This document shows positions 17,394-46,546 of a stretch of 46,547 nt of DNA, piece by piece. Made by a program: the position numbers and the translations under genes. The stretch is taken from the UHGV virus genome UHGV-0027832. One strand, given 5' to 3'. This DNA comes from a virus. Each line of letters starts with the position of its first letter. Within the stretch, counting starts at the first letter, position 1. The notes beneath the pieces are model-generated. The model was not told the DNA's origin. It was given only the letters and a program-made list of their open reading frames with translations, and did no database searches.

Positions 17394-21195
<3,802 letters not shown>

Positions 21196-25423: not shown

Positions 25424-25717
25424 ATGAAAATTAAAATGTTGATTGCATCAGTGCTATTTGCCTCCTCCTTTGCGGTAAGCGCAACCTCTGAGGTTTGCAA
25501 AAACATCGGAGAAATCGCCATGAACACTGCCGATGCTCGCGATAACGGTATTAGCAAGAATCTTGCCGAGGTGGTAGTAAAAGGATCAGCAAAAAACAAC
25601 GAATCAGCAGAAATAATCGGCCTTGCCATTGTAGAAATGGTTTATGCCAGCAGTGATATGACCAAAGAGCAATTGCGTGATGTTGCTGTTGCTTTGTGCG
25701 AAAAGAATGGCATGTAA
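25424..25717 (+). CDS. Secreted or periplasmic small protein with a signal peptide (97 aa)
   Basis: MKIKMLIASVLFASSFAVSATSE is a typical Sec signal with an AxA cleavage context; GAGGTGA SD. Confidence 0.6.
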   Translation: MKIKMLIASVLFASSFAVSATSEVCKNIGEIAMNTADARDNGISKNLAEVVVKGSAKNNESAEIIGLAIVEMVYASSDMTKEQLRDVAVALCEKNGM

Positions 25718-25737
25718 TATAAACAAGTTATTAACAG

Positions 25738-25944
25738 TTGAGGTTAGCTATGGACGTTGTTATTTTGTTGTTTTTCGCTGGATTGGTGATATTTGCTTAT
25801 CTTCTCCCGTCATTTGTGGCATTGCAAAGAAAGCACACAAACACGACAGCAATCTGTGTTCTGAATATTCTTGTCGGGTGGAGCTTTATTGGATGGGTTG
25901 CGGCACTTGTTTGGGCATTAGTTAACAGTGGCGACAAGAAATGA
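25738..25944 (+). CDS. Superinfection immunity (Imm)-like small membrane protein
   Basis: LPSFVALQRKHTNTTAICVLNILVGWSFIGWVAALVWAL matches the Imm_superinfect family signature (..NlllGW..iGWi.AlvWA); two TM segments. Confidence 0.65.
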   Translation: MRLAMDVVILLFFAGLVIFAYLLPSFVALQRKHTNTTAICVLNILVGWSFIGWVAALVWALVNSGDKK

Positions 25945-26084
25945 ACGAACAAACAAAAGCAGACCTGATTTTCTACACTGATTTGTATGTCGATGCGGGT
26001 TATGATTATGAAGAAGCAGAGCGCATGGCGAAAGACTTGCTTCGTGTTATTGGTGTGATTTTTGATGAGGATAAGGTGATATGA
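25941..26084 (+). CDS. Hypothetical acidic protein (47 aa)
   Basis: ATGA overlaps on both sides; sequence MNEQTKADLIFYTDLYVDAGYDYEEAERMAKDLL... Confidence 0.35.
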   Translation: MNEQTKADLIFYTDLYVDAGYDYEEAERMAKDLLRVIGVIFDEDKVI

Positions 26085-26314
26085 GCCAGTGGATTAAATG
26101 CAGTGAGCGGATGCCTGAAGAAGACTCTTATGTGGTAGCTGCAGAAATTGGAAGCGCAACATTGTATTCCTTTGTCGCATCTTGGTTCCTTCATGGAAGA
26201 TTTAACCTAATGGAGGATGGACTTAGCGCATCAAATTATGATGGCGGTGCATGTATTAGTATGAATTTGAGTATCACACACTGGATGCCGCTACCAGAAC
26301 CACCACAAGAATAA
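26081..26314 (+). CDS. DUF551-domain protein
   Basis: C-terminus ITHWMPLPEPPQE is the hallmark of DUF551; followed by a terminator. Confidence 0.6.
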   Translation: MSQWIKCSERMPEEDSYVVAAEIGSATLYSFVASWFLHGRFNLMEDGLSASNYDGGACISMNLSITHWMPLPEPPQE

Positions 26315-26344: not shown

Positions 26345-27061
26345 TCAGGATACGGTGCAGGCCGTGCTCAGGATGACTTCCGGGTCAGTAGACGAGTCTG
26401 TTACCGTAACTGTATACACACCAGCGGTAGGGCTTGCCAGTGTCGCACCAGATTCGCTACCGACAACCACGCCATCTTTGCGCCAAACGTAGGTGTAAGG
26501 AGCAACGCCACCTTCAACAGCAACAGTTAACGGACTGCCAGTCGTGCCAGTTGATTGCAGGTCGGTAGTGAATGCCAGAGGCTCAAGGCTTTCGACGGTA
26601 ACGCTGTCAGAATCGTAGACCTTGAACTCAAGGCTGCCAGTCACGATGTCGTTCGTGCCACCTTCGTAGCTGATGCTGGTGATGTTGCAGTACGCGGTAA
26701 CGATAGTTGCACCAGTCACCTGACGCACCCACAAGGAAGGCTGGCGACGCGCTTTCAGTTCAGTGGCGTAAATCTCAACAAGACGATGGAAGCCAAACTC
26801 ATCACTTGGGTCATTCTTGCGGATTTCCACCTCTGCGCTGATGGTCATATCAGAGCTGGTAACGAGAGTGGAAACAAAACCGCCAGTGGTATCAGCTTCT
26901 GACGTGGTGGTCTGCGGCGAATAGTCCACGCCTTTACTGGTGGTTGAGCCTAAATATTTCCAGTCTCCAGCTTCCGGAACTGCGTCACCGCAACCTTCAG
27001 CAAGGAACAGTCGGGTCATGCGACCGACCAGAACGCCTTTATCATTTGCACAAATAGCCAT
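26345..27061 (-). CDS. Major tail protein with a C-terminal Ig-like (Big_2-type) domain
   Basis: 238 aa; GGAGA SD; C-terminal ...LTVAVEGGVAPYTYVWRKDGVVVGSESGATLASPTAGVYTVTVTDSS... resembles a bacterial Ig-like domain; located upstream of the chaperone and TMP genes. Confidence 0.75.
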   Translation of the reverse strand: MAICANDKGVLVGRMTRLFLAEGCGDAVPEAGDWKYLGSTTSKGVDYSPQTTTSEADTTGGFVSTLVTSSDMTISAEVEIRKNDPSDEFGFHRLVEIYATELKARRQPSLWVRQVTGATIVTAYCNITSISYEGGTNDIVTGSLEFKVYDSDSVTVESLEPLAFTTDLQSTGTTGSPLTVAVEGGVAPYTYVWRKDGVVVGSESGATLASPTAGVYTVTVTDSSTDPEVILSTACTVS

Positions 27062-27096
27062 TTCGATCTCCGAATTGTGTTAGCTGCTAACGTGGT

Positions 27097-27141
27097 GATT
27101 ATATCACAGGTGTTGACAGTGATTTTTTTGTGGTGTAGATT
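27097..27141 (+). promoter_or_regulatory. Strong sigma70-like promoter (second copy): TGATTATATCA, -35 TTGACA, 17 nt, -10 TAGATT
   Basis: TTGACA at 27113-27118; spacer gtgatttttttgtggtg; TAGATT at 27136-27141. Confidence 0.5.
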
Positions 27142-27532
27142 AGGATTTAACAGAGATTGGTTCCATGATTTCATCTAATTACATCCAATCCTTCAATTAC
27201 AATTAGCGGTCGAAAGACGCCGGACGCGTAACCGGCACACAACAGGAAATAGTATTGGTGTACCGGAAGCCTGTGGGTTACGGCTAAGGAGTCCCAAGCG
27301 AGCGCATCAGTACTATTTCCGTTGTGACCAGCAAGACCATACAATATACGCAATAATCTTAACCGTAGCGCATGTTGTGGGGCTGGGAATGGGTTAACGT
27401 TCAAGAGTGAGATGGTGCGACACTCCACAACACTTAATATCCAGCATTATCGCAATCATATGTAGGGGTATGTATGGGTTACGGGGCTGGATATTAAGAA
27501 AGCACGCTGGCAATGCTTAAACCAGCACTTAT
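27142..27532 (+). ncRNA. ~390-nt non-coding, highly structured leader or candidate ncRNA between the promoter and the tRNA
   Basis: No plus-strand ORF of 60 aa or more. Long imperfect stem CACAAC(A)GGAAATAGTA / TACTATTTCCGTTGTG at about 27240-27256 and 27305-27320. 13-bp stem CTTAATATCCAGC (27434-27446) / GCTGGATATTAAG (27487-27499). Repeated GGGTTACGG and GGGCTGG elements. Confidence 0.3.
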
Positions 27533-27609
27533 GGACGCGTAGCTTAATTGGTTAAAGCAACCGACTCATAATCGGCTGATTGAAGGTTCAAATCCGTCCG
27601 TGTCCACCA
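27533..27609 (+). tRNA. tRNA with anticodon CAU (tRNA-Met, or tRNA-Ile2 if lysidine-modified)
   Basis: Cloverleaf: acceptor GGACGCG/CGTGTCC (one G-U pair); D-arm GCTT/AAGC; anticodon stem CCGA/TCGG with loop CTCATAA; T-arm GAAGG-TTCAAAT-CCGTC (one mismatch); discriminator A; encoded CCA. Confidence 0.8.
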
Positions 27610-27614
27610 AATTA

Positions 27615-27644
27615 AAAGCCGCTTCATGCGGCTTTATTTATTTC
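27615..27644. terminator. Bidirectional rho-independent terminator
   Basis: AAAGCCGCTTCATGCGGCTTT hairpin followed by ATTTATTT; lies directly after the tRNA and after the minus-strand gene ending at 27638. Confidence 0.7.
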
Positions 27645-28012
27645 ACAACCCGTAAAAGCAACTCATGTACAGGCCGCTTCTCTTCCGTTAACATCGGCCT
27701 ACCGATCGGAGCCTGCAACTGGATGTAGTTAACGCATGAATCAATCGGATGCGTCTTGATGTATTCGATAATCTCATTGGCTTTAGCATCAACATCCGAC
27801 ACGTTATACTGTCCATGCTTGCCGACAACATACAATGAGAAATAGAAATCACCGCCGAGGCCATCCATAACCTGCGTACCCCCATTGGATTGCAGGACAA
27901 TAAATTGCTCGTTGCCATCTCCGGTGTCATTCCAGAACTGCAACTGCGAAGTCCAGCCATCATATAATCCGGCATCCTGAAGATAAGCATCAACCAGTTC
28001 AAGCATATTCAC
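27638..28012 (-). CDS. Putative tail terminator/tail completion protein (gpU-like position)
   Basis: 124 aa ORF immediately upstream of the major tail protein gene; assigned by synteny. Confidence 0.45.
   Translation of the reverse strand: MNMLELVDAYLQDAGLYDGWTSQLQFWNDTGDGNEQFIVLQSNGGTQVMDGLGGDFYFSLYVVGKHGQYNVSDVDAKANEIIEYIKTHPIDSCVNYIQLQAPIGRPMLTEEKRPVHELLLRVVK

Positions 28013-34986: not shown

Positions 34987-36866
<1,880 letters not shown>

Positions 36867-44400: not shown

Positions 44401-46546
<2,146 letters not shown>

Follow-up and report, generated by a model that had tools for sequence, protein, structure and literature searches.

We analysed a 46,547-nucleotide stretch of viral DNA (UHGV virus genome UHGV-0027832, referred to here as the window, meaning the whole stretch at its full length) and found that positions 27113-27643 are best explained, with a probability of roughly 0.57, as an autonomous accessory transcription unit lying in a plastic slot between tail genes. 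We consider it quite likely that this unit is an independent modular operon of non-coding RNAs that contains a homologue of LPR2, a small RNA of phage lambda; a specific trans-acting, Hfq-linked mechanism for its products is a tentative proposal. The unit occupies the gap 27062-27637 on the + strand, between two tail genes on the - strand, and the window belongs to the Skatevirus/Saltrevirus group, siphophages of Salmonella and E. coli.

The element that ties this locus to lambda is a large hairpin with a lower stem (27238-27243 with 27321-27326), a bulged A at 27244 and an upper stem (27245-27257 with 27308-27320) capped by a module-specific apical insert of 50 nucleotides (nt; 27258-27307). 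All 19 of its 19 stem positions are paired, and the module folds with a z-score of -5.4. A preliminary description of the locus, made from the sequence alone, had drawn an interrupted stem of 16 base pairs (bp) here; the stem is real, and its exact form is 6 bp, the bulged A and 13 bp, plus 3-4 further pairs. Relatives repeat the stem, CACAAC-A-GGUAAGAGCAUUG ... CAGUGCUCUUUCCGUUGUG, with a wholly different apical part. The lambda counterpart lies at 44787-44862, immediately after the 6S RNA terminator tR', and its two stem arms are identical to those of the window in 17/20 and 17/19 bases, the differences being compensatory. Compared with the consensus stem, the window copy shows two double changes (G-C to U-A and C-G to U-A) and one change that closes a U.U opposition as A-U.

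It has been reported from an infection study of lambda by RNA interaction by ligation and sequencing (RIL-seq) that LPR2 adjoins 6S RNA, is enriched by Hfq co-immunoprecipitation, runs as a single northern band of ~63 nt and is expressed in the lytic cycle (bioRxiv 10.1101/2024.10.31.621285); a 2025 review mentions LPR2 and adds nothing further (PMC12197685). The LPR2 probe P844 (Table S5 of bioRxiv 10.1101/2024.10.31.621285) is the exact reverse complement of lambda 44816-44850, and we identified the window hairpin as an LPR2 homologue because this probe maps inside the homologous lambda hairpin. The lambda upper stem and insert together measure 13 + 37 + 13 = 63 nt, equal to the size of the LPR2 band, and this arithmetic suggests that LPR2 is excised at the bulged-A boundary. 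Judged by sequence and architecture, the window hairpin is a predicted member of the LPR2 family. Among the three options considered in the preliminary description (a processed precursor, a regulatory small RNA or degenerate tRNA remnants), the regulatory small RNA comes closest, given the homology of the big stem to the lambda LPR2 hairpin.

Across 91 distinct stems, 93.9% of cells were paired (a percentage that is inflated, as the copies were chosen for at least 15 of 19 pairs, a choice that does not inflate the compensatory counts), compared with at most 61% in slid controls. Double changes were seen in 13 of the 19 stem pairs, and 0 of 500 shuffles reached any of these measures. The bulged A hardly varies. 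Most copies have U.U at position 10/35 and U.G at position 18/27, the latter being a strand-specific RNA signature because the other strand would have an A.C mismatch at this place. Taken together, these results indicated that the stem structure is under selection as a + strand RNA. The inserts were compared across 213 hairpins, which carried 140 distinct ones, 25-137 nt long, in at least 74 families that cannot be aligned with each other; 15 insert families occur within 34 Skate-like loci whose tail-tube proteins are 90-99% identical. The insert family of lambda LPR2 was also found in four virulent Skate-like phages, and the window insert (family 5), which has an internal covarying stem with a G-C/A-U swap, recurs at six other loci, IME11 included.

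We found matches to the 5' arm pattern in at least 120 IMG/VR contigs, nearly all of which also have a matching 3' arm. The corresponding pattern scan of genome contigs is rich in chance matches, with a matching 3' arm at only 39 of 120 loci; true copies were found in genomes of Serratia, Yersinia, Rahnella, Pantoea, Klebsiella, Enterobacter, Kluyvera, Pectobacterium and others. The site of the hairpin in E. coli prophages is flanked by the genes for the antiterminator Q and the holin. A BLAST search with the window leader against 5,426 E. coli genomes gave no match because these genomes lack the modules and the stem variant of the window; the common variant of the stem was found in 341 E. coli genomes. 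Several of the loci positive for the 3' arm (L174, L195, L200, L221, L223, L235 and others) consist of a lambda-identical hairpin and flank, and such copies lie in tiny low-coverage contigs assigned to Pseudoxanthomonas, Psychrobacter, Algoriphagus, Tardiphaga and Oceanobacillus. Their presence in unrelated taxa is most simply explained by contamination of the assemblies with lambda DNA.

The features of the locus, with the two flanking genes, are as follows.

26345-27061, - strand: tail tube gene, named from the Skate and gmqsjt-1 records
27113-27141, + strand: promoter of sigma-70 type, TTGACA-17 nt-TAGATT, 10/12 consensus matches
27142-27237, + strand: 5' module A, AU-rich, with a hairpin at 27152-27192 and a small CCGG hairpin at 27219-27236
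27238-27326, + strand: LPR2-family hairpin, predicted from stem homology to lambda and covariation
27327-27431, + strand: module M2, a four-helix RNA with the 3' end CACAAC, recognised by compensatory changes
27433-27498, + strand: hairpin H3, 13-bp stem, conserved, fold z-score -4.1
27506-27526, + strand: small hairpin GCUGG-11 nt-CCAGC, five pairs, the last element before the tRNA
27533-27609, + strand: transfer RNA (tRNA) with anticodon CAU, found by ARAGORN and by the Rfam tRNA model (63.4 bits)
27615-27643, + strand (stem 27615-27635): intrinsic terminator, 8-bp stem with 5 G-C pairs, then a T-run
27638-28012, - strand: tail terminator gene (PF23842, E = 2e-41)

All the features named in the preliminary description were recovered within 1-3 nt of the positions it gave. 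A single + strand unit running from promoter to terminator, antisense to the flanking tail genes, was confirmed, as were the TTGACA-17-TAGATT promoter at 27113-27141 and the cloverleaf tRNA followed by a strong terminator.

To define the locus in related phages, we collected 34 relatives through the tail-tube protein and excised the homologous gap, which measured 451-1595 nt. The segment 27062-27141, promoter included, was 95-99% identical in 32 relatives, and where the first RNA module differs, similarity among relatives ends exactly at 27141, the last base of the -10 hexamer. Three alternative first modules occur, module A being one of them, and a module corresponding to 27425-27527 is kept almost everywhere. 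The tRNA content varies, in that relatives may have a tRNA with anticodon CAT or, on the same scaffold, AAT, a Ser(GCT) or Arg(TCT) tRNA, or no tRNA at all, and the terminator is kept with and without a tRNA. In 12 relatives the promoter, RNA modules and terminator are retained without any tRNA; therefore, the tRNA is an optional cargo of the locus. The earlier idea that the 390 nt form a leader for the tRNA was not upheld, since these 12 relatives and the Klebsiella phage Geezett keep the unit without one. The check for conservation in related phages that had been suggested showed the promoter and terminator to be kept and the modules to be swapped in Skate-like relatives.

Relatives carrying ordinary tRNA genes or open reading frames (ORFs) at this position had been named as evidence that would speak against the unit. 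Most relatives carry RNA modules, and an ORF stands there in two (L038 and L039), in which a 304-amino-acid (aa) Rha and KilAC antirepressor-like gene in the slot (window 27110-27614) replaces the RNA locus. This replacement begins just upstream of the -35 element, a similar terminator is kept in both phages, and L039 additionally has duplicated pieces. These findings demonstrate that the slot is an accessory-gene site whose cargo in most Skate-like phages is RNA.

Pieces of the leader also matched unannotated gaps in Geezett (Jedunavirus), in EC1-UPM and IME11 (Gamaleyavirus) and in Sashavirus. Geezett, a Klebsiella myophage, has a full parallel unit, antisense between baseplate genes and without a tRNA, in the order TTGACA-17-TG-AATTAT promoter, first module, long hairpin, M2, further sequence and terminator. 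A 382-nt block of the N4-like podophage IME11 is 95.5% identical to a Skate-like siphophage relative, and such blocks, shared across phage families, indicate that the modules move horizontally. The ~2 kb unannotated gaps of IME11 (L006 540-2640) and EC1-UPM (L005 634-2597) are themselves RNA islands, containing a tag-frame module, an LPR2-type hairpin, tRNA-like frames, two tRNAs and a strong terminator, in addition to degenerate tRNAs overlooked by ARAGORN and a weak STnc100-like match (29.7 bits). All listed genome-reduced derivatives of seszw, the smallest of ~36.5 kb, retain the locus, which is suggestive only; neither the work on seszw genome reduction nor that on the BASEL collection refers to it.

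The remaining modules differ in how firmly their folds are established: the M2 fold is strongly supported by covariation, and the H3 fold is supported more weakly. M2 is made of four helices (P1, 27328-27332 with 27382-27386; P2, 27342-27351 with 27368-27377; P3, 27387-27391 with 27398-27402; P4, 27405-27409 with 27421-27425), and 12 of its 27 pairs show compensatory changes among only eight sequences; homologues of M2 occupy gaps without annotation in Geezett and in the podophage EC1-UPM. H3, for which the preliminary description had given a 13-bp stem, does have one, shifted by one base (27433-27445 with 27486-27498), and its structured apical part contains GGGUUACGG. This hairpin is 95-100% identical in nearly all Skate-like relatives, tRNA-less ones included; one pair alternates between C-G (11 sequences), U-A (9) and U.G (3), and elsewhere in the main stem a single change mostly leaves a G.U pair. 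In the stem of module A we saw no double compensatory change, but nearly all single changes keep the pair as G.U, as expected of a + strand RNA; the 3' half of this module also occurs in Sashavirus. The small hairpin at 27506-27526, in which a G-C pair is changed to G.U in six sequences, directly precedes the terminator in the tRNA-less relatives. We also considered an H-type pseudoknot over the same region (AAGCA-C-GCUGG-CAA-UGCUU-AAA-CCAGC, 27501-27526), which the variation does not support; of two substitutions in relatives, one breaks stem 1 and one is neutral.

The repeated motifs noted previously are present (GGGTTACGG at 27275 and 27476, GGGTTAACG at 27391, with GGGCTGG forming the 3' strand of two different stems), but they are spread over three separate hairpins and do not form a single repeat family. 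A common protein-binding role for GGGUUACGG was not supported, as most relatives have one copy and its local pairing differs from hairpin to hairpin. Antisense matches of at least 14 nt to the RNA modules were absent within the window. Two 14-nt identities to - strand coding sequence were found, at 17797-17810 and 35007-35020 (~0.07 expected by shuffling), the matching RNA stretches being 27387-27400 in the M2 P3 hairpin and 27505-27518 in the loop of the last small hairpin. The match at 35007-35020, kept at 13/14 in phage 64795_sal3, falls within a 155-aa gene, at its conserved 3' end and 23 nt before the following start codon. A 14-mer scan of IMG/VR was uninformative; among the matches listed (at least 120), most were in contigs absent from the earlier scans. 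Both identities are probably due to chance, and no sign of function was found for them.

Transcription is predicted to start near 27148. The folding energy of the leader plus tRNA gave a z-score of -4.8 on the + strand and -2.8 on the - strand, so that the structural potential pointed out earlier is borne out by folding of the unit as well as of the large hairpin and H3. A covariance search, as had been proposed, was run with all 4227 Rfam 15 families over 26900-27800 at E <= 10; it returned the tRNA only, plus chance matches overlapping the tRNA or lying downstream of the leader. The 391-nt stretch upstream of the tRNA matched no tRNA model and no other Rfam family even at E <= 10, and the same scan gave no match in the window leader to the ROOL, GOLLD, HEARO, YrlA/Y RNA, STnc100, AgvB and AsxR models. 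A T-run is also found on the - strand of the terminator, which is thus probably bidirectional by its sequence. It may also halt - strand transcription coming from the tail terminator gene; if it does, the tail tube gene would need its own promoter or read-through.

The window holds mechanical ORFs in this region, such as one of 85 aa at 27171-27428 on the - strand. No ORF on either strand is common to the relatives, since position, frame and length differ in every one, and this agrees with the previous judgement that the ~390 nt hold no credible ORF. Because no ORF is shared, the small - strand coding sequences annotated in Skate are unlikely to be real.

The tRNA scored 63.4 bits against an Rfam threshold of 29, and ARAGORN, which does not distinguish Met from Ile2, also called a tRNA with anticodon CAT. 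Its nearest homologue in E. coli prophages shares its D-arm and anticodon arm and is called CAT by ARAGORN and tRNA-Ile by PGAP (NCBI); this homologue, accompanied by a tRNA-Arg(TCT), is located in the interval from Q to the lysis genes. The window and Skate tRNAs (L001 2998-3074) differ at a single base, C34 in the window (27567) and A34 in Skate, that is CAU versus AAU. The AAU of Skate is an Ile anticodon, and the RNA island of IME11 also has an AAU tRNA; this anticodon is unusual for bacteria. Furthermore, C4-G69 can be read from the sequence of the acceptor stem, and ATA makes up 20.7% of the Ile codons (13.8 per 1000 codons) in the long ORFs of the window, several-fold above E. coli usage. 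Counting against Ile2, an identical tRNA in phage Bas80 is annotated tRNA-Met. From its sequence, the window tRNA would fairly likely be of the lysidine-dependent, AUA-reading Ile2 type rather than an elongator tRNA-Met; hence the earlier assignment to tRNA-Met(CAU) stands for the tRNA and its anticodon, and Met is doubtful given the PGAP call of the homologue and the C34 to A change in Skate.

Most relatives (L009-L037) carry in the first ~175 nt after the promoter, instead of module A, a module resembling transfer-messenger RNA (tmRNA) with a tag frame. After AUAAAU this frame reads GCA AAC GAU GAU GUU GUU CUG AUG GCG GCG UAA UAG (ANDDVVLMAA), and it was also found at L005 ~1273-1460, at L006 1338-1500 and at several IMG/VR loci. 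The variants (ANEEMYLAVA, ANDDLMMVAA, ANDEQFLAVA, ANEEVYLAVA and others) are all 10 aa long, with AN(D/E)(D/E) at the start and, at the end, A-(A/V)-A preceded by a hydrophobic residue. This conservation at the peptide level suggests that the frame may be a working tag template. The module scored 28-34 bits with the Rfam tmRNA_permuted model (threshold 47), a permissive Rfam search on 15 related loci gave only weak tmRNA-type matches, and no complete tmRNA could be assembled in any relative. In the window leader there was no tmRNA call, no Rfam tmRNA match and no AAATGCAAACGA tag start.

A second tRNA-like feature of the relatives lies next to the LPR2-type hairpin. In an E. coli prophage (L167 2657-2715, between Q and holin), a ~60-nt element just downstream of the hairpin aligns to the two ends of the Rfam tmRNA model (20 bits, E = 3.5e-6); it contains the tRNA-like domain only, the 316-nt middle being absent, and its 3' end is ..GCC-A-CAAC, not CCA. 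Modules of this tmRNA-end type were also seen in L001, L003, L020, L021 and L029. In relatives the hairpin is usually followed by a tRNA-like 5' part, GGUG-(U/A)A-GCUC or GCGC..., which belongs to a frame with the 3' end ..CACCAC-A-AC and a variable insert at the site of the anticodon arm. In the window, M2 stands where relatives have this tRNA-like frame.

We propose that the sigma-70 promoter drives a ~500-nt primary transcript that would string separate small-RNA genes together in the order 5' module, LPR2-family hairpin, M2, H3 with the small hairpin, optional tRNA-Ile2-like gene and terminator. Host RNases would cut this precursor into individual stable RNAs, with RNase P acting at 27533 and RNase III or RNase E at or near the ~22-bp stem and the AU-rich linker 27327-27360. 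The conserved stem may serve processing, stability and Hfq association, and the variable insert may provide specificity, so that the RNAs could act in trans on RNAs or proteins of the host or of competing phages, as regulators, sponges or decoys that would aid infection and host takeover.

Several points weigh against the autonomous RNA operon and its proposed mechanism. The evidence for a discrete RNA and for Hfq association comes from lambda only, the window unit being known from its sequence, and the window variant has another insert and three changed stem pairs. LPR2 itself is without known function (bioRxiv 10.1101/2024.10.31.621285), and the 63-nt agreement depends on a gel size estimate. 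The cut sites and RNase dependence are inferred, and neither a target nor a partner was found, antisense matches of at least 14 nt being absent in the window. The promoter match taken alone is non-significant, as shuffles give 2.6 weaker matches per 1.7-kb scan. H3 and module A are too invariant for strong covariation, and to the selection of well-paired hairpin copies must be added a mean column identity of 92% in the stem, whose sequence conservation could partly reflect recent spread or a DNA-level role.

Among other explanations, the main functional alternative, given the neighbours of the modules in relatives, keeps the same RNA operon and takes the modules to be decoys or mimics directed at the host machinery for tRNA or tmRNA (candidates being SmpB, processing or modification enzymes, and defences that target tRNA, among them anticodon nucleases), not Hfq-dependent base-pairing RNAs. 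The modules adjoin real tRNAs and tRNA-like or tmRNA-like frames in relatives, the hairpin usually being followed by tRNA 5' parts of the GGUG-(U/A)A-GCUC type, and hypervariability between near-identical phages is typical of arms-race loci; moreover, for an RNA of mycobacteriophage DS6A that consists of hardly more than the tmRNA tRNA-like domain, a role as inhibitor, perhaps by titrating SmpB, has been discussed (PMC4131195). However, the window modules have no recognisable tRNA features, and the sole experimental datum, the association of LPR2 with Hfq, points to small-RNA biology, so we regard decoys as rather unlikely. An improbable view is that the locus is a graveyard of decayed tRNA and tmRNA genes at a recombination hot spot, with residual structure and no function. 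It would account for the ANDDVVLMAA frame and the tRNA-like-domain element (E = 3.5e-6) in relatives, the degenerate tRNA-like stretches in IME11, T-loop-like motifs in 17 of 140 inserts and the Rha/KilAC gene that replaces the slot content in two relatives. Yet the window leader is free of tRNA and tmRNA model matches at E <= 10, which leaves no trace there of the degenerate tRNA remnants suggested previously; stems are maintained by compensatory changes, identical modules are kept across unrelated phage families, and even in the tag-like frames the changes are conservative for the encoded peptide, which speaks for a function there too.

A role at the DNA level or in cis, either as recombination sites resembling integron attC or in insulating or regulating the antisense tail operon (by convergent transcription, by antisense RNA or through a terminator that works in both directions), is quite improbable in our view. 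In its favour, the sequence of both arms is conserved, the centre that they enclose varies (25-137 bp), one base is extra-helical, cassettes move between phages, the terminator looks bidirectional, and the unit is antisense inside a structural operon both here and in Geezett. Nevertheless, no integrase or partner gene is associated with it, the flanking genes differ between phage groups, the lambda element lies in the sense direction within the late leader, the conserved U.G pair and the G.U-only substitutions are strand-specific RNA signatures, and a discrete RNA is seen in lambda. That the 390 nt are a plain 5' leader of a tRNA precursor, removed by RNase P and RNase E and degraded without a role of its own, would fit the tRNA being co-oriented, 5 nt past the last hairpin and served by the same terminator, and phage tRNAs are commonly made from long precursors. 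This is very improbable: as described above, 12 relatives and Geezett keep the locus without a tRNA, covariation in three modules indicates selection on the folds, and the lambda homologue is a stable RNA in a tRNA-free locus. Small proteins on the - strand, as annotated in Skate (CPT_Skate_053 to 055, three of 46-53 aa) and as the 85-aa ORF of the window might suggest, are hardly credible, for besides the lack of a shared ORF the module swaps ignore any frame, most annotators leave the region empty, and the substitutions preserve RNA pairing.

Comparison with known systems places the proposed RNA operon nearest to lambda LPR2. The two hairpins share homologous arms, the plan of 6 bp, bulged A, 13 bp and apical insert, and a position in a transcribed non-coding stretch; they differ in having unrelated inserts (50 nt in the window versus 37 nt in lambda), in that lambda LPR2 arises by pR' read-through after tR' whereas the window hairpin has its own sigma-70 promoter in a siphophage of virulent type, and in that the latter is embedded with M2, H3 and a tRNA. 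In phage T4, species 1 and 2 (rnaC, rnaD) are small stable RNAs of unknown function in the tRNA cluster, co-transcribed with the phage tRNAs and cut from a common precursor by host RNases. We liken them to the window unit in organisation only and expect no relation in sequence or structure; the T4 genes are fixed, whereas the window cassettes are shuffled. The island between Q and the lysis genes of lambdoid prophages contains ileZ/argO-type tRNAs, StxS, PasD/STnc100, AgvB and AsxR (PMC13192938, PMC7547250). Like the window locus it is a hot spot for accessory RNAs, and in E. coli prophages it has an LPR2-type hairpin and a homologous CAT tRNA with tRNA-Arg(TCT); unlike it, its Rfam families do not match the window, where the island lies among tail genes with its own promoter.

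The tag-like frames and the tRNA-like-domain element of window relatives are shared with tmRNA and with the DS6A tRNA-like-domain RNA (PMC4131195), but the window itself has neither. Integron attC sites have in common with the hairpin their imperfect inverted repeats, variable centre, similar total length, extra-helical base and exchange of cassettes; on the other side stand the absence of an integrase in the window, the strand-specific G.U signatures and the RNA product detected in lambda. An attC site was rejected, there being no integrase near the element and its flanks being tail genes in the window, Q and holin in prophages and baseplate genes in Geezett, and the resemblance is formal only. 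A stem of the Y-RNA (YrlA), Ro-binding type was likewise rejected, as no model matched in the window leader; to our knowledge, E. coli K-12 lacks the Rsr protein. Thus a simple tRNA 5' leader, tmRNA, the Rfam phage RNAs, Y RNA and attC each fail a tested defining feature.

A further possibility, which we put forward as speculative and on balance doubtful, is that the LPR2 stem, conserved, processable and associated with Hfq, is a display scaffold for swapped RNA cassettes, an 'RNA integron', whose dozens of unrelated inserts would be specificity modules, each directed at a different target of the host or rival phages. Such a module might be an aptamer or provide a seed for base pairing; recombination within the stem arms would pass inserts between Enterobacterales phages, temperate and virulent alike, and the whole could form a fast-evolving arsenal for counter-defence or host takeover. 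In relatives the tRNA-like frame would be a parallel scaffold that also displays unrelated structured inserts, and the load-out of the window would be insert family 5, M2, H3 and tRNA-Ile2. New here are the wide occurrence of the LPR2 stem as a scaffold for unrelated inserts, its presence under its own promoter in virulent phages, and M2 and H3; none of these points was found in the literature on Skatevirus, BASEL, seszw and LPR2, in papers on phage tRNA-like RNAs or by a literal search for the stem sequence.

Where near-identical phages differ at accessory hot-spot loci, the variable content has until now been interpreted as protein genes, typically for anti-defence or superinfection exclusion; here the hot spot consists of RNA. 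If the proposed reading is true, LPR2 gains a comparative set of > 200 copies in at least 74 insert families, with a defined stem, a bulged A and a conserved mismatch, and its processing and function become directly testable in lambda, the most tractable of phages. The unannotated 0.5-2 kb gaps in the genomes of Skate-like phages, Gamaleyavirus, Jedunavirus and Sashavirus would then be RNA gene arrays, neither junk nor mis-called small ORFs, and the stem would be a candidate natural scaffold for stable RNA expression in E. coli. In addition, the tmRNA-like tag frames of the relatives raise the question of phage tampering with trans-translation.

Next to the RNA unit we observed a second antisense island at 25424-26314 (+ strand), consisting of small ORFs between the tail-assembly genes and the tail tube gene, one of which is annotated in Skate as a superinfection immunity (Imm) protein. 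With the RNA unit, the tail module thus holds two separate accessory islands on the opposite strand.

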